A stretch of 64,000 bases of DNA from an uncultured Candidatus Binatia bacterium (GCA_965215605.1 OZ244070.1:2464001-2528000), one strand, 5' to 3'. Counted from the first letter of the stretch, positions 38,025 through 50,834 are shown. Numbers and translations are program-made. The notes: generated from the letters alone by a model not told the origin.

Positions 38025-38726
38025 TCACTGCTTCGCCACCGGCGGCCACTTCTCCACGAGCACTGCGGGAATTCCCTCGCGGGACAGGCGGGCGGCGTAT
38101 TCCCTGGCCGCCTCGGCCCCGGTGAAGGTGCCGAGGCGGACCCGGAAGAGACTCTCGTGGGGCTCGATCACCACGGGCCTGTCGTGCCGGCTCTCCAGCC
38201 GGGCTTTCAACTCACGGGCCTTGTCGAGGTCCGAGAACGCCCCCACCTGCAGGGTGTAGTCCAGATGGTCGGGAATGGCGGTGAGCGGCTGGCCGCCGGT
38301 GTCCAGGACATCCACCCGCACCGGCGCGGTTCCCGGGCCGATCATGTCCACCTGTCGGGCCGCGGCGTAGGAGAGGTCGATGATCCGTCCTTTGGCGAAG
38401 GGTCCCCGGTCGTTGATCAGCACGGTCACCGACTTGCCGTTGGCAAGGTTGGTGACCCGCACGTTGGAGCCCAGCGGCAGGGTCGGGTGCGCGGCGGTCA
38501 TGCCGTGCTGGTCGTAGACGGTCCCGCTGGTGGTCTTCTTGCCGTGAAAGCCGGGTCCGTACCAGGACGCGACGCCTTCTTGCGTGAGCGGCGCGGCGGG
38601 CGGCGTGGAAGCGATGGGCGGCGGCGGCGGTGCCGGAGGCTCCGGCCCGTAGGGGGCGCAGGCGTAAACCAGAACCAGGGCGGCGGCGGCCCACGGGGCG
38701 AGGCCACGGAGGCGTGCAGGAACCAT
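38025..38726 (-). CDS. rlpA: Septal ring lytic transglycosylase RlpA-family lipoprotein
   Basis: Lipobox-like VYAC, Pro-rich linker, GVASWYGPGFHG, TAAHPTLP, INDRGPF, IIDLSYAAA, SPOR domain (LQVGAF). Confidence 0.9.
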   Translation of the reverse strand: MVPARLRGLAPWAAAALVLVYACAPYGPEPPAPPPPPIASTPPAAPLTQEGVASWYGPGFHGKKTTSGTVYDQHGMTAAHPTLPLGSNVRVTNLANGKSVTVLINDRGPFAKGRIIDLSYAAARQVDMIGPGTAPVRVDVLDTGGQPLTAIPDHLDYTLQVGAFSDLDKARELKARLESRHDRPVVIEPHESLFRVRLGTFTGAEAAREYAARLSREGIPAVLVEKWPPVAKQ

Positions 38727-38735
38727 CGAGGTTGG

Positions 38736-38746
38736 ATTATACCGCA
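38736..38746 (-). promoter_or_regulatory. Sigma70-type -10 element for rlpA
   Basis: Minus strand TGCGGTATAAT; perfect TATAAT ends 9 nt before the ATG. Confidence 0.45.
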
Positions 38747-38901
38747 ATATCGGCTGCATGTAAGCGGTAACCCGGCCGGCGGCTCCGTTTACGGGGCGTG
38801 GTGTATTGTGGTACTTTTTTACTTGCGGGCTTGGTCCGGAGGGCGGGTCCGCAAGCGGTCCCGGCAACGGGACCAGTCCCGTTGGAGGAGAGTGTCGCGT
38901 C

Positions 38902-40287: not shown

Positions 40288-40872
40288 GTGATCGCCAAGG
40301 TTCGCGGAATACTGGACCACAAGGCGCCGGGCGAGGTCATCGTGGACGTCGGCGGCGTCGGTTATCAACTGTTCACGGCGCTCAGCGTGTTCTACCGCTT
40401 GCCCGAGGTGGGGCAGCCGGTGACCCTGCTCGTGTACACCCATGTCCGGGAGGACGCCCTCCAGTTGTTCGGCTTCTACGACCCCGCGGAGAAACAGGCA
40501 TTCATGCTGCTGACCGGGGTGTCGGGCATCGGCCCCCGGCTGGCCCTCAACATCCTGTCGGGGATGGCGGCCGGGGAGCTGTTGGACGCCCTCCGGGAGG
40601 GCGACGTCGCCCGGCTGGTGTCGATACCGGGGGTGGGCAAGCGGCTGGCGGATCGCATGATCGTGGAGCTGCGTGATAGGATAGAAGCTCTGCCGGATGC
40701 CGCCCCGGAGGCGGCGGCCGCTCCCGGGATCCGGGGCGACGCGCTGTCGGCGCTGGTGAACCTCGGCTACCGGCGCCCGGATGCGGAGCGGGCCGTGCGT
40801 CAGGTGCTGGGCAACGGCGCCTCCGAGTTGGAAACGGTGCTCAAGGAAGCCCTGCGCCTGCTCAGCCTCTAG
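40288..40872 (+). CDS. ruvA: Holliday junction branch migration protein RuvA
   Basis: GTG start, [51 protein letters not shown]. Confidence 0.95.
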
Positions 40873-40900
40873 CGTCACCGGATTCAGCGGAACCGCGTTC

Positions 40901-41938
40901 ATGGAAAACAGAGCCATCTTGCCCGCGGGCACCGAGGAGGACGTCCTCTACGACTCGAGCCTCCGCCCCCGGCGTTTCAGCGAATACTTCGGACAGGAGA
41001 AGGTCAAGGCCAACCTCGGGGTGGCCATCACGGCCGCCAAACGGCGCGGCGACGTGCTGGACCATCTCCTTTTCCACGGCCCTCCCGGCCTGGGCAAGAC
41101 CTCTCTGGCCCATCTGATCTCGAGGGAGATGGAGGTGGAGATACGGCCCACCTCCGGTCCGGTGGTGGAGCGGCCCGGAGATCTGGCCGCGCTGCTTACC
41201 AACCTCGACGTCGGCGACATCTTGTTCATCGACGAGATTCACCGCCTCAACCACATTGTGGAGGAGGTGCTGTACCCGGCCATGGAGGACTTCCAGGTGG
41301 ACGTGATGATCGGGCAGGGGCCCGGCGCCAAGTCCATCAAGCTGGAACTCAAGCGGTTCACGCTCATCGGCGCCACCACCCGTTCCGGCCTCCTGACCCC
41401 GGCGTTGCGCAACCGGTTCGGCGCCGTGTTCCGCCTCGACTTCTACGAGCCGGAGGTGTTGGCGAAGCTGCTTGCCCGGTCCGCGGCGCTGCTGGGCGTG
41501 GGCGGCGACGACGCCGGCTTCATGGAGATCGCCCGCCGCTCCCGCGGCACGCCGCGTATCGCCAACCGGCTGCTGCGCCGCGTCCGGGACTACGCCGAGG
41601 TCCACGGCGAGGGCAGGGTCACCCGGCCGGTGGCCTGTCAGGCCCTGGAGATGCTGGAGGTCGATGAGCAGGGTTGCGACAAGATGGACACGCTCCTCCT
41701 AACCACCATCATCGACAAGTTCGACGGCGGCCCCGTGGGACTGGACACTCTGGCGGCGGCCATCGGCGAGGAGCGGGGCACGGTGGAGGACGCCTACGAG
41801 CCGTACCTCATCCAGGCGGGCTTCCTGGAGCGCCGGCCCCAGGGCCGTGTGGCCACGCCGGTGGCGTACCGGCACCTCGGGCGGTCGCAGTCGGCGGCGC
41901 GCGTGGACAGGGAGAAGCGGCAGAAACGGCTCTTGTAG
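40901..41938 (+). CDS. ruvB: Holliday junction DNA helicase RuvB
   Basis: [52 protein letters not shown]. Confidence 0.96.
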
Positions 41939-42082
41939 CGCTCACGGGAGCCCGTATCGACGGTGGCGTCGACACCGGCGCGGGGGACGGCTTGCCGGCC
42001 GGCGGGCGACGTCATTTCCTTTGTGCTTTGCGGGTGGAAGCGATAGAACGGTGTGACACGGGAGGCGGATCGAGCCACTCCG

Positions 42083-44305
42083 ATGAGCACGGTCAAAAAG
42101 GACGAAGAGACGCTCCGGGCCGAGGATCGGACGCGGCGCAGGCGTGAAGGCTGGCTGATACTCATCGCCGCCCTGATGATCCTGCTGTTCGCGTTCTTCG
42201 AGGATCTCCTGCCGGATGTCGCGGCGGACTACGCCTTCACCGGCAACGTCGCGTTCTTCCTGCTGGTCAACATCAACATCATCCTGCTGGTGCTGCTGGT
42301 CTTCCTGGTTTCGCGGAACCTCCTGAAGCTGGTGCTGGACCGGCGCAAGCGCATCCTCGGTTCCCGGCTGCAGGGGAGGCTGGTGTTGGCCTTCGTGGGC
42401 ATCTCCCTGGTGCCCACCGTGATGCTGTTCCTGATCGCCGAGAGCCTGGTGACGCGTTCCGTCGACAAGTGGTTTGACTCGCAGATCGTGAACGCCCTGA
42501 GGGGCTCCCTCGACATCAGCGCCACCTACTATCAGAACTCCGCGGACAACGCGCTTTACTTCGCCCGGCAGCTCAGCCAGCGCGTGGGCGACGGGCGGCT
42601 TCTGGAAGCGAAGAAGATCGACGGGCTGAAGCGTCTCGTGGAGGAAAAGCAGCGCGAGTACAATCTCGGCACGGTGGAGGTCTACAAGCCGGACGGGACC
42701 GCGCTGGTGAAGGCCTTCAACGACCAGGTGCCCACCGGGGTCACGGTGAGTTCGCAGGCGGATTTCCTCAACAGCGCGCTGCGGGGCCTGGAGGCGACCC
42801 GCACCCAATCCCTGGGCGAGGGCGACGTGCTGCGGGGCGCGGTGCCGGTGTACGGGGAGGGGAGGAGGATTATCGGGGCGGTGGTGGTGGACTACTTCGT
42901 GCCCACGAGCGTCAGCAAGAAGGCGCAGCAGATATCGCGCTCGTACGAGGAACACAAGCACTTGGCGGTCCTCAAGGAGCCCGTCAAGAACACCTATATC
43001 CTGACCCTGCTGCTCATCACCCTGGTGATGATCTTCGCGGCCACCTGGTTCGGGCTCGCGCTGGCCAAGGGCATCACCGTGCCGATCCAGCAGTTCGCGG
43101 AAGGGACCCACGAGGTCGCCCACGGCAACCTGGACTATCGCATCGAATCCGGCGGCGACGACGAGATCGGAGCGCTGGTGGCGTCCTTCAATCAAATGAC
43201 CGCGGATCTCAAGCACACCAACTCCGAGCTGGAGCAGCGGCGGCAATACATGGAGACGCTGCTGGCCAACATCACGGCCGGAGTGATTTCGGTGGACTGG
43301 TCGGGCAAGGTCACCATCATCAACAAGGCGGCCGAGCTGATGCTGGGCATCCACGCCGGGGACGTGCTCCGCCGGGACTACGAGGAAGCGCTGCAAGCCC
43401 CCGATCTGGCGCCCTTGCTCGACGTGATCAAGCAGGTCAGGGACAGTTCCGGCGTGGAACGCGACGTACGGATCGTGGGCCGCGACCGGCCCCTGACGCT
43501 CATGACCGTGGCCGCCAGCCTACGGGACGACGACGGCAACACGCTCGGCATCATGGTCTTCATGGAGGACATTACCGAGATCCAGAAGATCCAGCGGGTG
43601 GAGGCTTGGCGCGAGGTGGCGCGCCGCATCGCTCACGAGATCAAGAATCCGCTGACGCCGATCCAGCTTTCGGCGCAACGTCTGCGGAAGCGTTACGAGA
43701 ACGTTCTGGACGGAGACGGGGCCGTGCTCGACAAGTGCACGTCCACCATCATCCGGCAAGTGGACGAGCTCAAGACCCTGGTGAACGAGTTCTCCAACTT
43801 CGCCCGGCTGCCCACCGCCCAACTCGTTGCGGACGATCTCAACGAGGTGGTCCGCGAAGCGCTTTTCCTGTTCAAGGAAGGGCACCGGGACGTCGAGTTC
43901 GACTTCTCGGAGGATGCCTCGGTTCCGCCTGTCGAGCTGGATCGCGAGCAGATCAAGCGCGCCATCTTCAACTTGTTGGACAACGCCGTGGCTTCGCTCG
44001 ACGGCACGGGGCGCGTCGAGATCGCCATCCGGTTCGACGAGGCTTTCGGCATGGTGCGGCTGGAGGTGGCGGACGAAGGGGAAGGCATCGCCCGGGAGGA
44101 CCGGGGCCGGATCTTCGAGCCCTACTACTCCACCAAGAAGGACGGCACGGGGCTGGGTCTGTCCATCGTGGGAACCATCGTCGCCGACCACCGGGGATAC
44201 ATCCGCGTGCGCCAGAACCAGCCCCACGGAACACGCTTCATCGTCGAGCTCCCCTCGGCCTTGCAGGCGGACGCCCAGGATTTCCGTGCCAGCGAGGCAT
44301 CCTGA
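42083..44305 (+). CDS. NtrY-like membrane sensor histidine kinase (TM-periplasmic-HAMP-PAS-HisKA-HATPase)
   Basis: N-terminal TMs, SVDKWF, HAMP DEIGALVASFNQMT, PAS, AWREVARRIAHEIKNPLTPIQLSAQRL, NLLDNA, DEGEGI, GTGLGL. Confidence 0.92.
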   Translation: MSTVKKDEETLRAEDRTRRRREGWLILIAALMILLFAFFEDLLPDVAADYAFTGNVAFFLLVNINIILLVLLVFLVSRNLLKLVLDRRKRILGSRLQGRLVLAFVGISLVPTVMLFLIAESLVTRSVDKWFDSQIVNALRGSLDISATYYQNSADNALYFARQLSQRVGDGRLLEAKKIDGLKRLVEEKQREYNLGTVEVYKPDGTALVKAFNDQVPTGVTVSSQADFLNSALRGLEATRTQSLGEGDVLRGAVPVYGEGRRIIGAVVVDYFVPTSVSKKAQQISRSYEEHKHLAVLKEPVKNTYILTLLLITLVMIFAATWFGLALAKGITVPIQQFAEGTHEVAHGNLDYRIESGGDDEIGALVASFNQMTADLKHTNSELEQRRQYMETLLANITAGVISVDWSGKVTIINKAAELMLGIHAGDVLRRDYEEALQAPDLAPLLDVIKQVRDSSGVERDVRIVGRDRPLTLMTVAASLRDDDGNTLGIMVFMEDITEIQKIQRVEAWREVARRIAHEIKNPLTPIQLSAQRLRKRYENVLDGDGAVLDKCTSTIIRQVDELKTLVNEFSNFARLPTAQLVADDLNEVVREALFLFKEGHRDVEFDFSEDASVPPVELDREQIKRAIFNLLDNAVASLDGTGRVEIAIRFDEAFGMVRLEVADEGEGIAREDRGRIFEPYYSTKKDGTGLGLSIVGTIVADHRGYIRVRQNQPHGTRFIVELPSALQADAQDFRASEAS

Positions 44306-44349
44306 GCCGGAGCGGGCCGAACCGAGACGTCATGGAGGATCCAGAAAAC

Positions 44350-45696
44350 ATGGAGTCAGCCCAAAGAACCGTGCTGGTGGTGGACGACGAGGACGTCATC
44401 CGCGAAACCGTACGCGAGATTCTCACCGACGAGGGCTACCGCGTGGTGGCCGCCGCCAACGGTTCGGAGGTCCTGGGCCTGGTGGAGAATGAGAGGCCCG
44501 ACGTCATCCTCCTGGACATCTGGATGCCCGAGATGGACGGGATCGTCCTCCTCAAGCAGATCAAGCGGGAGCATCCGGACGCCCGGATCGTCATGATCTC
44601 CGGCCACGGGAGCATTCACACGGCGGTAACGGCCACGCAGTTGGGGGCGTTCGATTTCATCGAGAAGCCGCTTTCCCTGGACGGGTTGCTGGCCACCGTC
44701 GAGCGGGCCTGCGGTGACGCGGGGCGCGAGGGTCCCGCCGCCGACGAGGGGCCGCGGGCGCTCCGAACCGGCCTCCCGGGGCTGTCGGCCCAAGGAGGTT
44801 TCCAAGGCAACGGCGGCGTGCCCCAGAAGACCCTCAGGAAAAGCGTGGTGGCGTGCGGTCTGGGCCTGCATTCAGGCGTCAGCACGGGCGTCATCCTGCA
44901 TCCCTTGCCGGAGGACAGCGGCATCCACTTCGGCGGAATCTCCGCCGACGCCACCGTGCCGGCGCATCTGGACTACGTGCGATCCACGGACTTCGCCACC
45001 TCGCTCCAGCGCGGCGGCGTGGTGGTGGGCACGGTGGAGCACCTGCTGGCGACGCTCCACTCGTACGGCATCACCAACCTGCTGATCAAGATGTACGGCG
45101 AGATTCCCATCATGGACGGCTCCGCCATGGAGTTCTGCCGGTTGATCGAGGAAGCTGGGGTGGTGGAGCAGCCGGGGCGATGCCCCGAGATCGTCATCGA
45201 CCGGACCCTTCGCGTAACCGGGGACGGGCAGGAAGAGATTTTCATCGAGCCGGCCGACCGGTTCATCGTCCACTACCGGCTTCAATATCCGCGTCCGGTG
45301 GGGATGCAGGAGTACACCTACGTGCACGAGGGCGCGGATTCGTTCCGCGACCAGGTCGCCCCTGCCCGGACTTTCGGTTTCCTGCGCGACTTCGAGAAAC
45401 TCGAGCGGATGGGCCTGATCAAGGGCGGCCGGCTCGGCAACTGCATCCTCTTCGACGAAGAGAAGGTCATCAACACGGAGTTGCGGTTCGACGACGAGCT
45501 CGCTCGCCACAAGATCCTGGATATCGTGGGAGACTTCTCGCTCATCGGCGGTTCCGTGCGCGGCCGGGTGACCGCGAACATGACGGGTCATGCCGACAAC
45601 ATCGCGTTGTTGCGGCAGGTCGCGGAAATCTATTGCCCCTCGGATGACCGGACCGCCGGCGGGGCCCGCCCCCATCCGGATCCGCTGTCCCCTTGA
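44350..45696 (+). CDS. lpxC: Receiver domain fused to UDP-3-O-acyl-GlcNAc deacetylase (REC-LpxC)
   Basis: REC: VLVVDDE, LLDIWMPEMDG, MISGHG, FDFIEKP. LpxC from about 44824: QKTLRKSV..GLGLHSG, TVEHLLATL, EIPIMDGSA, ARTFGF, HKILDIVGD, TGH. Single uninterrupted frame; ATG 44350 after GGAGGA. Confidence 0.92.
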   Translation: MESAQRTVLVVDDEDVIRETVREILTDEGYRVVAAANGSEVLGLVENERPDVILLDIWMPEMDGIVLLKQIKREHPDARIVMISGHGSIHTAVTATQLGAFDFIEKPLSLDGLLATVERACGDAGREGPAADEGPRALRTGLPGLSAQGGFQGNGGVPQKTLRKSVVACGLGLHSGVSTGVILHPLPEDSGIHFGGISADATVPAHLDYVRSTDFATSLQRGGVVVGTVEHLLATLHSYGITNLLIKMYGEIPIMDGSAMEFCRLIEEAGVVEQPGRCPEIVIDRTLRVTGDGQEEIFIEPADRFIVHYRLQYPRPVGMQEYTYVHEGADSFRDQVAPARTFGFLRDFEKLERMGLIKGGRLGNCILFDEEKVINTELRFDDELARHKILDIVGDFSLIGGSVRGRVTANMTGHADNIALLRQVAEIYCPSDDRTAGGARPHPDPLSP

Positions 45697-45711
45697 TGCC
45701 GGCCGTGATCG

Positions 45712-46128
45712 TCAGTTCCCGTCGAGTCCCAGCCGCCCGGCGAAGGGCTCGGGGAGCCGGAGGAGCTTGCGGTCGCGGCCGAGGCAGGCGTGCTTGGTCC
45801 AGCCCGAAGCCAGGGCGGCGCGTTCCCCCTCCAGACAGATCCGATAGTTGAATCGCAGGGCCACCCGGCTGAGGGACTCCACGGTGGTCTCGATCCGCAG
45901 CAGATTGTCGTAGACGGCCGGCCTGCGGTAACGGCACTGGACCTCGGTGACCGGGAAGAAGACGCCGTCCCGTTCCGCCTGGTCATAGGGGAAGCCGGCC
46001 TCCCGCATGAGCTCGGTCCTGCCGATCTCGAACCAGCGGAGGTAGTTCGCGTAGTAGGCGACGCCCATCTGGTCGGTATCGCCGTATATGACACGATAGG
46101 TGGTGATGTTCTTCACGGTCGGCGCCAA
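45712..46128 (-). CDS. Acyl-CoA thioesterase (YbgC/FadM family)
   Basis: RVIYGDTDQMGVAYYANYLRWFEIGRTE. Confidence 0.9.
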   Translation of the reverse strand: MAPTVKNITTYRVIYGDTDQMGVAYYANYLRWFEIGRTELMREAGFPYDQAERDGVFFPVTEVQCRYRRPAVYDNLLRIETTVESLSRVALRFNYRICLEGERAALASGWTKHACLGRDRKLLRLPEPFAGRLGLDGN

Positions 46129-46176
46129 CTCAAGGCCCGTAGGACGAACGCGCCGCGAGCACCCGGGGAACCCCGG

Positions 46177-47100
46177 TCAGTCGTCGGCTTTATCGCTCGG
46201 CGGGGCGGGTTGATTGAAGTCCCAGCGGTCACGGCTGGCCACCCGGATGTCCAGGGAACCGTCCCCGCGGATCACGTGGAAGGTGATGAGATCCCCCGCC
46301 CGCTTCTTCCAGACTTCCCGGTAGAGCTGGGGCCGCGTCTGCACTTCCTGTTCCTCCACGGAAAGGATGATGTCGCCCTGCTTGAGGCCCGCCGCTTCCG
46401 CGGGCCCCGACGGGGTGACCCCGGTGACCACCACGTGGCCGCCGAGACCCTGCGGGTACAGGCCGAGCCAGGGGCGGGGCGGGCGGCTCTGGACACGCCC
46501 GAAACGCCTGAGCTCGTCGGCGTCCCGAAGGTAGCACTCCACCGGGATGGCGAGCGTGAACTTGCCGACGTCGTTCAGGTTCAGGGACACGACCCCGAGG
46601 AGGCGGCCGCGGGAGTCCGCCAGCGTGCCCCCGCCGAACCCGGGATTGAACGTGCTCACCCGGATGGATCGTTCGAGCAGGTATTCCCACTGTCCGTCGT
46701 AGCCTTCGAGAGAGGTCACGTTGCCGTCGCTGACCCGCCGGTTGTTCTGTCCGCTGCTGGCGATCATGAACGCGGGTTGACCCACGGCGACGGACTCCGC
46801 CGGGCGAAGGAACGGGAGGTCGGCGGCGTCGATGTCGACCAGCGCGAGTCCGGTGTCGAAGTCCTGCGCGGTCAGGCGGCCCGGGTATTGCTTCCCGTCC
46901 GACAAGGTAACGGTAATCGCTTCGGCGCCGTTGACGACGTAGTTGACGGTCAGGATGGTGCCCGCGGGATCGACGATGGTGCCGGAGCCCATGCGCTCGG
47001 TGCCCAGGTTCCGGGCGGACGGGTGGTGTGACGGCACCCTCGTGTTGAGGTCCACCGTGGCCAGCAGCACAGCATGCACCAGACCCAGCCGCGCGTTCAC
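46177..47100 (-). CDS. S1C/HtrA-like trypsin-fold plus PDZ protein lacking canonical catalytic His and Ser
   Basis: MGSGTIVD, LTVNYVV, DFDTGLALV, FNPGFGGG, RPWLGL, SGPAEAAGLKQGDII; GTG 47100 after GGAGG. Confidence 0.8.
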   Translation of the reverse strand: MNARLGLVHAVLLATVDLNTRVPSHHPSARNLGTERMGSGTIVDPAGTILTVNYVVNGAEAITVTLSDGKQYPGRLTAQDFDTGLALVDIDAADLPFLRPAESVAVGQPAFMIASSGQNNRRVSDGNVTSLEGYDGQWEYLLERSIRVSTFNPGFGGGTLADSRGRLLGVVSLNLNDVGKFTLAIPVECYLRDADELRRFGRVQSRPPRPWLGLYPQGLGGHVVVTGVTPSGPAEAAGLKQGDIILSVEEQEVQTRPQLYREVWKKRAGDLITFHVIRGDGSLDIRVASRDRWDFNQPAPPSDKADD

Positions 47101-47253
47101 GCCCCACCTCCCAAAGGTTCCCAAGCTCGGGGAACCGGAATCGAGGCTCTTTGCGTTAGCAGAAACGTTCTGAGTTCACAAGGTATCGGGGGCGCGCGCC
47201 ACGTTGACAACGGCGTCTCGGGCCGGGTATCAAGTCTGGACTGGAGTGGCCTT

Positions 47254-47772
47254 GTGAAAATCCCCATCAACCGGATCGAGACCGTTCCCAAGGAAAGCCG
47301 TTTCTCCGAGGTCCCCGACATGGGCCACGAGGAACGCCCGGCGGCGGTGCGCTTTCCCTCGCCGATCCAGGTGAACGTCACCTACTACCGGTCGGGTCGG
47401 GAGCTGTTCTTTCACGGCGGACTCAAGGGTCAGGTGGAGGCGGACTGCAGCCGTTGTCTGGAAGGCGTCGCCTTCGTCATCGAAAAAAACTTCGACTTCG
47501 TGTTGACCCCGGACCCCCTTCCGACTAATAAAAACAGGGAGCTCACGGACGACGAGATGGGCCTGAGTTTCTACTCCGGGGACGATGTCGAGTTGTCGCC
47601 CTACGTCCGTGAGCAGATGTTGCTCGCCCTGCCTCTCCGGCCGCTTTGCAGCGAAAGCTGTCGTGGCCTGTGTCCCGGTTGCGGTGCCGAGTTGAACCGG
47701 ACTGGTTGTGAGTGCACGTCGCCGGGTGATCCCCGCATGGCGGTATTTCGTAATCTCCGGCTGGACCGTTAG
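47254..47772 (+). CDS. YceD/DUF177 protein
   Basis: CSRCL, EQMLLALPLRPLCSESCRGLCPGCG, DPR; directly upstream of rpmF. Confidence 0.9.
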   Translation: MKIPINRIETVPKESRFSEVPDMGHEERPAAVRFPSPIQVNVTYYRSGRELFFHGGLKGQVEADCSRCLEGVAFVIEKNFDFVLTPDPLPTNKNRELTDDEMGLSFYSGDDVELSPYVREQMLLALPLRPLCSESCRGLCPGCGAELNRTGCECTSPGDPRMAVFRNLRLDR

Positions 47773-47883
47773 CGCCGGCAAAGAAACTACAAAAGTGTCC
47801 TGGAAACGCGGCCGATGGGACGACCGGACCAGCAGATCGGCACACGCATCTCATGAGGCAGGACACTAGGACGGAAGACAAAC

Positions 47884-48066
47884 ATGCCCGTACCCAAGAG
47901 ACGAACCTCCAACAGCAAGAGAAACAAGCGCCGATCCCATGACGCCATTGCCGCTCCACAGTGGACGACGTGCTCTCGCTGTGGGGAAGCGACCCTGAGG
48001 CACAGAGCCTGCGCCGGTTGCGGCTACTACAAGACCCGGTCCGTGCTCCCCGGCGAAGAGACCTAG
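47884..48066 (+). CDS. rpmF: 50S ribosomal protein L32
   Basis: MPVPKRRTSNSKRNKRRSH...CSRCG...HRACAGCGYY. Confidence 0.96.
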   Translation: MPVPKRRTSNSKRNKRRSHDAIAAPQWTTCSRCGEATLRHRACAGCGYYKTRSVLPGEET

Positions 48067-48139
48067 TGCCCCGCAGCGTCCAAATGGAGCCCAAGATGCG
48101 CAGGACAGGCCGCTAGGACCTGCCCGTAGCCTATCCGTG

Positions 48140-49132
48140 ATGCGGCGGATTATCGTTGATGCGATGGGCGGTGACCACGGCCCTGGCGTTGTCGTCACGG
48201 GCGCCCTTCAGGCCGCGGACGAGTACGGAGTGGAGATCGTCCTGGTCAGCGAGTCCGGCGCCGTGGAGTCCGAGTTGTCGCGCCGCAAGCTCAACCCGTC
48301 CGCGGTGCACGTCCTGCCCGCCGCGACCTCCATCGACATGCACGAATCTCCCACCCGTGCGTTGAAGCAGAAGGATTCTTCCATGAGGGTCGCCTTCGAC
48401 CGGTTGAAGGCGGGCGAGGGAGACGCGGTGGTGAGCGCGGGAAATTCGGGCGCCATGATGGCCATCGGGATGTTCGTGCTGGGCCGGCTTCCCGGTGTCG
48501 ACCGGCCGGCGATCCTGACCGTCGCCCCGTCGGTGTCCGGCGGAACGGTGCTGCTTGACGGAGGCGCCAACACGGACTGCAAGCCTCGGCAATTGGAGCA
48601 GTTCGCGCACATGGGCGCCATTTACGCGGAGAAGATCCTGGGCATCACCGGACCGCGGGTGGGCGTCCTGAGCAACGGGGAAGAGGACGAGAAGGGAAAC
48701 GAGCTCACGCGCGAAGCGGTCCGCGAGCTGCGTTCCGCCGGCCTCGACTTTGTGGGCCACGTGGAAGGCCGCGACATCACCAACGGCCGGGTGAACGTGG
48801 TGGTCTGCGACGGTTTTACCGGCAACGTGGCGTTGAAGACCATGGAGGGGCTCGGACAGTTCGTATCCACGGTCCTGAAGGGGGCGTTCCGGAGCAGCCT
48901 GCTCAGCCGCGTCGGCTACCTGCTGAGCCGCCGGGCCATTGCACGGGCGTATGACCGCCTGGACTACGCTCACTACGGCGGCGCCCCTCTGGTGGGGTTG
49001 AACGGCGTGGCCATCGTGGCCCACGGGGGCTCGTCGGCCAGGGCTATCAAGAACGCCGTGCGGGTGGCGGCGGAAGCCGTGTCGCAGGACATCAACGGCT
49101 ATATCGTGAACGTGTTGAATCGGGAGTCCTGA
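48140..49132 (+). CDS. plsX: Phosphate acyltransferase PlsX
   Basis: VDAMGGDHGP, SAGNSGA, GVDRPA, GEEDEKGN, DGFTGNVALK, YGGAPLVG, HGGS. Confidence 0.95.
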   Translation: MRRIIVDAMGGDHGPGVVVTGALQAADEYGVEIVLVSESGAVESELSRRKLNPSAVHVLPAATSIDMHESPTRALKQKDSSMRVAFDRLKAGEGDAVVSAGNSGAMMAIGMFVLGRLPGVDRPAILTVAPSVSGGTVLLDGGANTDCKPRQLEQFAHMGAIYAEKILGITGPRVGVLSNGEEDEKGNELTREAVRELRSAGLDFVGHVEGRDITNGRVNVVVCDGFTGNVALKTMEGLGQFVSTVLKGAFRSSLLSRVGYLLSRRAIARAYDRLDYAHYGGAPLVGLNGVAIVAHGGSSARAIKNAVRVAAEAVSQDINGYIVNVLNRES

Positions 49133-50079
49133 TGCCGGACGGAAACGACATCGCCTTCGTCTTCCCGGGGCAGGGCTCGCAGGCCGTAGGCATGGGCAAG
49201 GCCCTGTGCGACCAGTTCGCCGAGGCGAGGGCCGCTTTCGAGGAAGCCGAGGATGCTCTGGGGCTGGATATGCGGGAGTTGTGCTTCCGCGGCCCGGAAG
49301 CCGATCTCAACCGCACGGAATACACCCAGCCCGCGATCCTGACGGCGTCCGTGGCCGCGTTGCGGGTGCTCGAACGGCAAGGCGGGGTGCGGCCCTCGTG
49401 GGTGGCCGGACACAGCCTCGGCGAGTACAGCGCGCTCGTTTGCGCGGGCGCGTTTCGGCTCGCGGACGCGGCGGTCGTGGTCCGCGAGCGGGGCCGCCTG
49501 ATGCAGGAAGCCGTGCCCCAGGGCGAGGGGGGCATGGCCGCGATTCTCGGGCTGGACACGGCCGCGGTGCGCAAGCTCTGCGCGGAGGCGGCGGACGGCG
49601 AGGTGGTGGCGCCGGCCAATCTGAACGGCGGCGGACAGGTGGTGGTCTCGGGAGCCCGCGGAGCCGTGGAGCGGGCTTCGCAACTGGCGCGGGACCGGGG
49701 CGCGAGGAGGGTGGTGGAGCTGGCGGTGAGCGCTCCCTTCCACTGCGCGCTGATGCGGCCGGCCGCGGAAGGGCTGCGCGAGGTGCTGGAGGGCGTGGCG
49801 GTAGCACCGCTTGCGGCAGGGGTCGTCACCAACGTGGAGGCGTCGCTGAACTCCGACCCCGAGCGCGTCAAGCCGCTTCTGGTGGAACAGGTGGTGGCGC
49901 CGGTCCGATGGGAAGAGTCGGTGCACGCCCTCCGGGCGCTCGGCTGCCGGCGCGCCGTCGAGTTGGGGCCGGGGAAGATCCTGTCCGGACTCGTCCGGCG
50001 CATCGATCGGGACATCAAGACCCTGAACCTGGACCAGCCCGGGGACCTGGACAAGGTGCTGGAGGAACTGGGAAGCTGA
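49132..50079 (+). CDS. fabD: Malonyl-CoA:ACP transacylase
   Basis: FPGQGSQAVGMG, TQPAI, AGHSLGEY, VSAPFHC. Confidence 0.95.
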   Translation: MPDGNDIAFVFPGQGSQAVGMGKALCDQFAEARAAFEEAEDALGLDMRELCFRGPEADLNRTEYTQPAILTASVAALRVLERQGGVRPSWVAGHSLGEYSALVCAGAFRLADAAVVVRERGRLMQEAVPQGEGGMAAILGLDTAAVRKLCAEAADGEVVAPANLNGGGQVVVSGARGAVERASQLARDRGARRVVELAVSAPFHCALMRPAAEGLREVLEGVAVAPLAAGVVTNVEASLNSDPERVKPLLVEQVVAPVRWEESVHALRALGCRRAVELGPGKILSGLVRRIDRDIKTLNLDQPGDLDKVLEELGS

Positions 50080-50081
50080 CC

Positions 50082-50834
50082 ATGGCCGCGGGACCGCTGA
50101 CGGACAAGGTCGCCCTCGTGACGGGCGGCAGCAGGGGCATCGGGCGGGAGATCGTCCTGTGTCTGGCCCGGCAGGGCGCGCGGGTGGTCATCAACTACCG
50201 GGAGAATCGCAAAGCGGCCGAGGGGGTGCTGGAGAAGGTCCTGGGCGAGGATGGCCTCGCCGAGCTGGCGCCCTTCGACGTCGCCCGGCAGGACGAGGTC
50301 GACGAGGCCGTCAAGGAGGTCATTGACCGGCATGAAAAAGTTGATATTTTAGTCAACAATGCGGGGCTGACCGTCGACGGTCTGTTGGTGCGCCAGTCGG
50401 CTCCCGACTGGGACCGGATCATCGACGTCAATCTCAGGGGCGTCTTCCATTGCACCAGGGCCGCCAGCAGGAGGATGATCCGGCAGCGGTACGGCCGTAT
50501 CGTCAATATCACCTCGGTGGCGGGTCAAATGGGGAATGTTGGCCAGTCCGTATACGCCGCCTCCAAGGCGGGTATCGAGGGATTTACCAAATCCATGGCC
50601 AGAGAGTTGGCGCCGCGAGGAATCACCGTCAATGCCGTGGCTCCGGGATTCATCGAAACGGAAATGACGGCGAGCCTGGGCGAGGAAATCCGGGGCAGGT
50701 ACCTTGGCGCGATTCCCTTGGCCCGGTTCGGCGGCGGGGACGACGTAGCCCTGACGGTGGCGTTTCTAGCGGGCCCCGGCGGGGGATACATTACCGGGCA
50801 AACCATCGCGGTCAACGGCGGGCTGTACATGTGA
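50082..50834 (+). CDS. fabG: 3-oxoacyl-ACP reductase
   Basis: [39 protein letters not shown]. Confidence 0.95.

Follow-up and report, generated by a model that had tools for sequence, protein, structure and literature searches.

Background

Lipid A synthesis is controlled at LpxC, an enzyme long pursued as an antibiotic target, and its regulation outside a few model proteobacteria is acknowledged as an open question in a 2025 review of lipid A regulation (PMC12444477). The controls treated there comprise proteolysis through FtsH/LapB/YejM, which is the best known and operates in Escherichia coli, possibly proteolysis by Lon in alphaproteobacteria, activation by MurA in Pseudomonas aeruginosa (i.e., the binding of a partner protein can set LpxC activity), transcription under NtrYX and ChvGI, and Ght, which localises LpxC in Neisseria; the words "fusion", "receiver", and "response regulator" are absent from the same text. 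Here we analyze a locus in a 64,000-nt stretch of DNA from an uncultured Candidatus Binatia bacterium (GCA_965215605.1, OZ244070.1:2464001-2528000; hereafter the window, in which all coordinates are given), where the gene of an NtrY-type sensor histidine kinase is followed by a gene that joins a response-regulator receiver to a complete LpxC.

Two of the closest described systems act on lpxC transcription. In Desulfovibrio vulgaris, ChIP-type data give lpxC as the single mapped target of the sigma-54 regulator DVU2934, which is encoded with the kinase DVU2931, and in Syntrophobacter fumaroxidans lpxC adjoins an operon orthologous to DVU2931/DVU2934 (Rajeev et al. 2011, PMC3333781). The likeness to the locus studied here lies in a dedicated two-component system aimed at lpxC, and the arrangement of S. 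fumaroxidans matches the order lpxC-kinase-regulator that we found in 23 of 80 loci; the difference is that DVU2931/DVU2934 exert transcriptional control as separate proteins, whereas the window protein unites receiver and enzyme in one chain and lacks the sigma-54 machinery. Loss of the NtrY/NtrX pair raises lpxC mRNA 8.8-fold, indirectly, in Rhodobacter sphaeroides (PMC7240162), and the pair affects lpxC transcription in Caulobacter crescentus (PMC12444477). The NtrY/NtrX systems of Brucella abortus, R. sphaeroides, and C. crescentus share with the window the layout of the kinase, the nearest receivers, and the link to the envelope or lpxC, but NtrX carries AAA+ and helix-turn-helix (HTH) domains and controls dozens of genes at the DNA level, while the window protein has an enzyme as output.

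Response regulators with an enzymatic output are a known kind, e.g., CheB (receiver-methylesterase), PleD and WspR (receiver-GGDEF), RpfG (receiver-HD-GYP), and RssB; in CheB the unphosphorylated receiver blocks the active site, and RssB delivers RpoS to proteolysis. CheB, PleD, WspR, and RpfG resemble the window protein in their succession of receiver, flexible linker, and catalytic domain, but their outputs are enzymes of signalling or adaptation, whereas here it is the committed and normally essential step of a bulk biosynthesis. Compared with stand-alone LpxC, which is the same enzyme with the same fold and catalytic residues and equally the regulatory node of lipid A synthesis, the window protein contains its regulator within its own chain, with a histidine kinase as the predicted partner. 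What is new is not the kind of regulator but its output, the committed enzyme of lipid A synthesis. The initial annotation of the locus, made from the DNA sequence alone, was aware of no characterised example, in agreement with our full-text literature searches, in which no paper describing a receiver-LpxC fusion was found (subscription-only papers and supplements were outside their reach). If the most far-reaching reading given below is true, this would be the first two-component system with a bulk envelope-biosynthesis enzyme as its direct output, and it would add a fourth way of controlling LpxC to those by FtsH/LapB, MurA, and transcription.

Domain architecture of the predicted regulator

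Judged by its sequence, the locus encodes a two-component system of two genes, with LpxC itself as the output domain of the response regulator (Table 1). The uninterrupted open reading frame (ORF) reported 44 nt after the kinase gene was recovered as described: the kinase stops at 44305, the next frame opens with an ATG at 44350, and the 448-aa translation of 44350-45696 contains no internal stop. A Shine-Dalgarno-like GGAGGA lies in the spacer (44334-44339), and a second ATG at 44332, which would give a protein of 454 aa, is the start called in close relatives (P0005). Every receiver and LpxC motif named in the initial annotation is present in the translation, the Gly/Pro/Ala linker estimated at about 35 aa measures 37 aa (residues 122-158), and the LpxC part is full-length with intact catalytic motifs, as it passes both Pfam and TIGR00325 and aligns with the P. 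aeruginosa enzyme.

The receiver holds the motifs VVDDED (D12, D13), LLDIWMP (D56), MISGHG (S84), and FIEKP (K106), i.e., its phosphorylation pocket is intact, and the AlphaFold2 (AF2) model gives it the (beta-alpha)5 fold over residues 7-121 with a predicted local distance difference test (pLDDT) of ~81-94; profile, fold, and the acidic-pocket, acceptor, Ser, and Lys residues all place it in PF00072. Its nearest solved sequences are the Brucella NtrX receivers 4d6x/5m7n (E 3e-28), and among NCBIfam receiver matches NtrX scores best (128.5 bits, far from the cut-off of 600 bits for a full-length NtrX). These matches assign the receiver to the NtrX/NtrC-type regulators that partner NtrY-like kinases. 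The central AAA+ and Fis-type HTH parts of such regulators are lacking, with no Pfam match to Sigma54_activat or HTH_8 in the window protein, and only 37 disordered residues (11 Gly, 5 Ala, 4 Pro) lie between receiver and LpxC.

The LpxC domain passes the NCBIfam equivalog TIGR00325 lpxC (239.7 bits, cut-off 187.25) and carries TVEH (E230, H231), HKILD..GD (H387, K388, D391, D395), and TGH (H414). These residues, together with T341/F342 (in RTFGF), align to identical residues of P. aeruginosa LpxC; the zinc ligands of LpxC (His, His, Asp) and its catalytic Glu/His pair are among them. A Foldseek comparison of the fusion model with Aquifex aeolicus LpxC (1yh8_A) gave E 5e-32, a target TM of 0.94, and a root-mean-square deviation of 1.6 Å over 273 columns. 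The AF2 model was built on an alignment of 52 receiver-LpxC proteins and reached a mean pLDDT of 84.7, with values < 50 only in the linker (123-154) and the C-terminal tail (433-448). Its predicted TM score (pTM) of 0.78 lies above a rough estimate of ~0.6 for independently placed domains, from which no conclusion is drawn, and a docking prediction of the receiver (1-124) with LpxC (155-430), run without controls, scored 0.00 against a mark of 0.32 and carries no weight in either direction.

The kinase gene encodes 740 aa from the ATG at 42083 or 750 aa from the GTG at 42053. Its Pfam matches are NtrY_N, HAMP, PAS, HisKA, and HATPase_c, all five over cut-off, NtrY_N only just (28.8 bits vs. 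23.2). In GTG numbering, three hydrophobic segments (aa 30-135) are followed by a loop of ~175 aa (136-309) and a fourth segment (aa 310-343), sCache_3_2 gives a weak match to aa 161-279 (22 bits, below its cut-off), and HisKA covers aa 519-586. With this domain layout and an H-box histidine, the protein is predicted to be an NtrY-type sensor with four membrane segments, and the kinase of unfused lpxC-kinase-regulator loci shares 46% identity with it.

Assembly integrity and lipid A genes

Misassembly at the junction between receiver and LpxC, which had been raised as a possible objection, is contradicted by a 2180-nt Logan contig of run X5, from a related strain in a different study, which covers 43900-45445 and thereby runs from the end of the kinase gene through receiver and linker and over the first 600 nt of LpxC. 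Over 1546 nt it differs from the window by 16 substitutions and one extra G after 44308 in the spacer, so that the coding frames are unaffected. Contigs of runs X2 and X4, possibly from the source sample, cover 44668-46100 with 0-1 differences.

The genome of the window (4.06 Mb, 8 contigs, 97% complete) contains a single match to PF03331, the fusion, which answers in the affirmative the question of the initial annotation whether this is the only lpxC, and in three further genomes of the fused type the fusion is again the sole LpxC. A lipid A pathway probably exists in the genome, as two lpxA copies score over the TIGR01852 cut-off (334 bits, G000:C1:3699899-3700657; 304 bits, G000:C1:1779122-1779880). 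No second NtrY-like kinase was found in it, and the receiver of an unfused regulator has its best match there in the receiver of the fusion (52%). A search for LapB in this genome found none (best match 29 bits, cut-off 363). The only match to PF18073 (Zn_ribbon_LapB) was considered as LapB and rejected, since the protein is RadA/Sms-like, with a KaiC-type ATPase and Lon_C (L094 1366-2841, which is G000:C1:2138544-2140019); PF18073 does not single out LapB. Distant LapB-like proteins whose match extends into the C-terminal zinc ribbon of the model are encoded in two fused-type genomes (G440:C18:49934-50917, 91.5 bits; G441:C1:611957-612724, 70 bits), and none in G000 and G442. The idea of the fusion as a replacement for LapB was dropped, as LapB-like proteins are found in both fused-type and unfused genomes without clean complementarity.

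Conservation of the two active sites

In the alignment of the 52 receiver-LpxC proteins, whose identity falls to ~30%, no variation is seen at D13, W58, S84, K106, E230, H231, H387, K388, D391, D395, and H414, and ≥ 90% of the members retain D56, T341, and F342. This pattern points to purifying selection on both the phospho-acceptor site and the zinc/catalytic site across the family. The connecting parts behave differently: the identity of the linker to that of the window is 47% in close, 13% in middle, and 6% in far relatives (both domains are 86-88% identical in close relatives), its length ranges over 25-68 aa, and the tail has 0-23 aa with 1-2% identity in middle and far relatives. Within LpxC, seven residues set the fused clade apart (G180, Y239, K247, C263, E267, L367, T412), and they could not be related to an interpretable surface.

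The acceptor motif was recovered in 176 of 184 fused proteins; the eight without it are five truncated fragments and three proteins in which the Asp is replaced, by N in P0144, S in P0148, and E in P0197. The fused clade also includes two LpxC proteins that are complete and stand alone (P0195, P0217). Such acceptor-substituted and stand-alone members are natural experiments on the need for the receiver.

Distribution of the receiver-LpxC family

The initial annotation had allowed that the architecture might already be present in databases, and it is: both Pfam domains occur in all 120 of the 90%-identity clusters among the matches listed (identity 93-63%). Nor is it a private deletion-fusion: each of 40 relatives has it, 24 from the same genus and 16 from two other families of the order (39 with a single full-length match, one split over two contigs), and it was also recovered in a second phylum and, as a full-length receiver-LpxC, in 12 of 12 genomes of the same class. 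Within the phylum, 344 of the 401 genomes sampled gave an LpxC match at E ≤ 1e-40, among which the listed rows hold 54 full-length receiver-LpxC proteins and another 49 rows that match over the LpxC part only (47-60% identity; frames of 399-837 aa in 48 and of 277 aa in one). Together these make ~103 fused cases in 401 genomes, the 49 not having been checked one by one. A gap in E-values from 2.3e-78 to 1.3e-63 splits the fused type from ordinary LpxC (≤ 45% identity, 280-370-aa frames). In the second phylum, that of the genome with locus L027 (Nitrospinaceae by record title), a full-length match to the 736-aa long form was obtained in 58 of 120 genomes and a 58-73% identical LpxC part, mostly in 670-750-aa frames, in 47 more, i.e., at least 105 of 120 are of the fused type.

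For a wider view, a library of 1.84 billion proteins was searched and the 150 highest-ranking representatives of its 50%-identity clusters were classified by architecture. Full fused forms numbered 63 (46 receiver-LpxC, 15 receiver-AAA+(-HTH)-LpxC, and two receiver-HTH-LpxC), and the remainder consisted of seven N-truncated AAA/HTH-LpxC proteins, 66 with LpxC only, and 14 with the receiver only. Family members include marine nitrite oxidisers of the Nitrospina group (according to record titles) and Binatia-like bacteria of soil and sediment. For whole phyla the family offers a testable answer to the question of how LpxC is regulated, since the kinase and the acceptor residue are defined and the enzyme assay is a standard one.

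Origin of the fusion

The long members of the family carry remains of the regulator from which it appears to derive. P0123 (736 aa) has a receiver, Sigma54_activat (141 bits), an AAA lid, and LpxC in Pfam, P0133 gives weak AAA+ scores only, P0130 and P0134 combine receiver, HTH_8, and LpxC, and the window type, with neither AAA+ nor HTH, stands at the end of this graded series. When 18 long fused forms were aligned with three unfused regulators, GAFTGA, the Walker B DE, and the arginine-finger region were present in all three of the latter, while none of the 18 fused forms had GAFTGA or a Glu after the Walker B Asp; among 22 fused proteins that contain the AAA domain, a pattern search found a GAFTGA-like motif in none and Walker A in 11.

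An LpxC-domain tree was built from 115 rows, 62 of the fused type and 53 of ordinary LpxC; four of the 62 lack an N-terminal domain and were grouped with the fused type after the tree had been seen (the two complete proteins P0195 and P0217, one fragment, and one garbled sequence). The split between the fused and ordinary types received a support of 100 in the Shimodaira-Hasegawa-like approximate likelihood ratio test (SH-aLRT) on a quick mixture-model tree and 100/99 on a careful LG+G4 tree, and it was present in 200 of 200 bootstrap trees, although the bootstrap had not fully settled. For the receiver, a tree holding the fused rows together beats the free quick tree by 44.5 log-likelihood units (approximately unbiased test, p-AU 0.861). 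The family has one origin on the LpxC tree, and, given the support for this split and the constrained receiver tree, neither domain rejects a single origin of the fusion. On the LpxC tree long and short forms alternate, which takes at least eight changes, and very close pairs of both exist, e.g., P0134 (491 aa) with P0139 (735 aa), which indicates that AAA+ was lost repeatedly and in part recently.

The proposal of the initial annotation that the enzyme has taken the place of the transcriptional output therefore stands insofar as AAA+ and HTH are gone and LpxC is the predicted output, but a simple replacement does not describe the route. Since long members keep a decayed AAA+/HTH and unfused relatives keep a complete regulator, the sequences support an order of events in which LpxC was appended to the whole regulator first and AAA+/HTH then degenerated and were repeatedly deleted. 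As an example of regulatory evolution the family is unusually clear: a transcription factor appears to have been joined to the protein encoded by its own target, its DNA and sigma-54 modules decayed step by step, and intermediate forms survive.

The likely ancestral locus was sought among 80 loci chosen by similarity to the query, the proportions of which are not natural frequencies. Fused loci account for 18 of them: ten with the kinase directly upstream, five with too little flank, and three with no kinase within at least 4.6 kb, i.e., the kinase is directly upstream in 10 of the 13 with enough flank (L014-L093), as it is in 11 of 11 loci of the same genus (L003-L013). In 23 of 80, an unfused lpxC precedes the kinase and a ~450-aa regulator (one with the regulator match on the opposite strand), 34 have a kinase and regulator without an lpxC match, and 5 a regulator alone. 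Of the 10 fused loci with a linked kinase, 9 have ruvB upstream, as do 9 of the 23 with the order lpxC-kinase-regulator; because ruvB precedes both locus types, a conversion in the same place is the reading that this synteny gives, in which ruvB-lpxC-kinase-regulator became ruvB-kinase-regulator::LpxC. Where the two genes are unlinked (genomes G440 and G441), a full-length NtrY-like kinase without an adjacent regulator is encoded elsewhere in the genome.

Proposed mechanism and alternative explanations

In the scheme that we favor, a complete sigma-54-type regulator of a ruvB-lpxC-kinase-regulator locus was joined to the N-terminus of LpxC, after which its AAA+ domain lost GAFTGA and the Walker B glutamate and was deleted many times, leaving in the window the minimal receiver-linker-LpxC form. 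The kinase would phosphorylate D56, and the phosphorylated receiver would change the output of LpxC after translation. Given the adjacency of the two genes, the purifying selection on both active sites, and the single lpxC in the genome, a kinase-to-LpxC switch is what we infer, and phosphorylation probably controls the activity, stability, or location of LpxC. As for the manner, an unphosphorylated receiver, alone or as an alpha4-beta5-alpha5 dimer, might hold LpxC in a low-activity state that phosphorylation releases; by analogy, we tentatively prefer such a CheB-like relief of inhibition, without giving it even chances, because it keeps the sign of the ancestral activator and has a precedent in CheB. 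More speculative still is the full picture, in which the NtrY-type sensor would read the envelope via its ~175-residue periplasmic loop and set LpxC activity within seconds, and in which a large and ancient family in at least two phyla would have replaced the transcriptional control of lpxC by a closed post-translational loop.

Several observations weigh against this scheme. The LpxC of the fused clade can, to judge from the three acceptor substitutions and at least two nested stand-alone proteins, work without a phosphorylatable receiver, and phospho-control seems dispensable in places, with the acceptor Asp gone from three members and the receiver from two lineages. No receiver residues specific to fused proteins were found and no new contact surface is visible, and a disordered linker of variable length, or a 270-aa module in its place in the long forms, argues against a fixed, tight interface between receiver and LpxC. 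The free receiver tree (119 columns) is poorly resolved, with the fused rows not forming one group (8 changes), and the unfused regulators, likened to DVU2934 by gene order, are putative orthologs of it. Taken together, the losses of acceptor and receiver, the missing receiver surface, and the LapB-like proteins of G440 and G441, which suggest that other controls may operate, would fit a receiver that is a relic, i.e., one without signalling, serving as a folded appendage or an aid to dimerisation or solubility on an LpxC that is constitutive or otherwise controlled. Such a relic would, however, hardly retain D12, D13, D56, S84, and K106 at 30-40% identity while linker and tail decay completely; moreover, the useless AAA+ has decayed and been deleted (at least eight changes), yet the receiver was kept, and the kinase gene stays adjacent, so that we consider this explanation improbable.

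Somewhat less improbable, though still unlikely, is that phosphorylation sets the amount or location of LpxC and not its catalysis, through a degron for FtsH, Lon, or ClpXP (RssB-like), through dimerisation, or through recruitment to the membrane near the kinase. A flexible tether would suit recruitment, LapB was not found in the genome of the window, regulated proteolysis is the best-known LpxC control, and the action of Ght on LpxC is a precedent for localisation (PMC12444477). Against it, the C-terminal tail, which is the site of the E. coli degron, is unconserved and often absent, and no degron or membrane anchor was identified in the sequence; in any case it would be a sub-case of phospho-control and not an alternative to it. 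A reversed flow, with the LpxC domain sensing a metabolite by substrate or product occupancy and the receiver acting as phosphate sink or as feedback on the kinase, has very little in its favor: no other regulator partnered with the kinase was found in the genome to carry the output, and the catalytic residues of this sole LpxC, in a genome with lpxA, are invariant as in a working enzyme. Least credible of all is an artefact or private accident, be it misassembly, read-through of a frameshift, or a strain-specific ntrX-lpxC deletion, given the independent contig across the junction, the full-length match in 39 of 40 relatives, the 63 full fused forms in the top 150, and the second phylum with its at least 105 of 120 genomes.

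Coordinates and genomic neighborhood

Table 1. Features of the kinase and receiver-LpxC genes in the window
Feature	Position	Strand	Evidence
NtrY-type sensor histidine kinase gene	42083..44305 (ATG) or 42053..44305 (GTG)	+	ORF list, Pfam
Membrane/sensor part of the kinase	42140..43081	+	Kyte-Doolittle scan
Codon of predicted phospho-histidine H528, H-box HEIKNPL	43634..43636	+	Motif search
Spacer from kinase stop to fusion start, 44 nt	44306..44349	+	Sequence
Receiver-LpxC fusion gene, 448 aa + stop	44350..45696	+	Translation, Pfam, NCBIfam
Receiver (REC) domain, residues 8-117	44371..44700	+	Pfam Response_reg 117 bits, cut-off 30.2
Codon of predicted phospho-acceptor D56	44515-44517	+	Motif LLDIWMP
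Gly/Ala/Pro-rich linker, residues 122-158	44713..44823	+	Sequence, pLDDT
LpxC domain, residues 159-425	44824..45624	+	Pfam LpxC 265.6 bits
LpxC key codons E230/H231; H387-D391; H414	45037-45042; 45508-45522; 45589-45591	+	
C-terminal tail, unconserved, residues 427-448	45628..45693	+	pLDDT, alignment

A scan of 41700-46300 gave no sigma-70 promoter and two terminator-like sites, both on the minus strand and at chance level, and the sigma-54 consensus had no match in 41408-46877 (41 matches in the whole window vs. 65.7 expected). In the window, ruvB (40781-41938) lies just upstream of the kinase; in other fused loci it holds the same position, and in the unfused lpxC-kinase-regulator loci it stands just upstream of lpxC (loci with ruvB: L014-L021, L029, L034, L037, L049, L056, L058, L067, L070, L082, and L084). 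Downstream of the fusion (45712-50834) follow a convergent 4HBT thioesterase, a trypsin-like PDZ protease, YceD, and plsX-fabD-fabG, an order also kept in L015-L017 and L029. The starter genes of phospholipid and fatty-acid synthesis are thus ~2.4 kb from the LpxC gene, and an acyl-ACP precursor is common to both pathways. Further upstream, an ORF on the minus strand (~38025-38780) was identified by eye, without a Pfam search, as RlpA-like. An RlpA-like DPBB+SPOR protein is also encoded upstream of the long form of L027 (3564-10850), which has no adjacent kinase and is followed downstream by LolA and an RseP-type M50 protease, with envelope genes thus on both sides.

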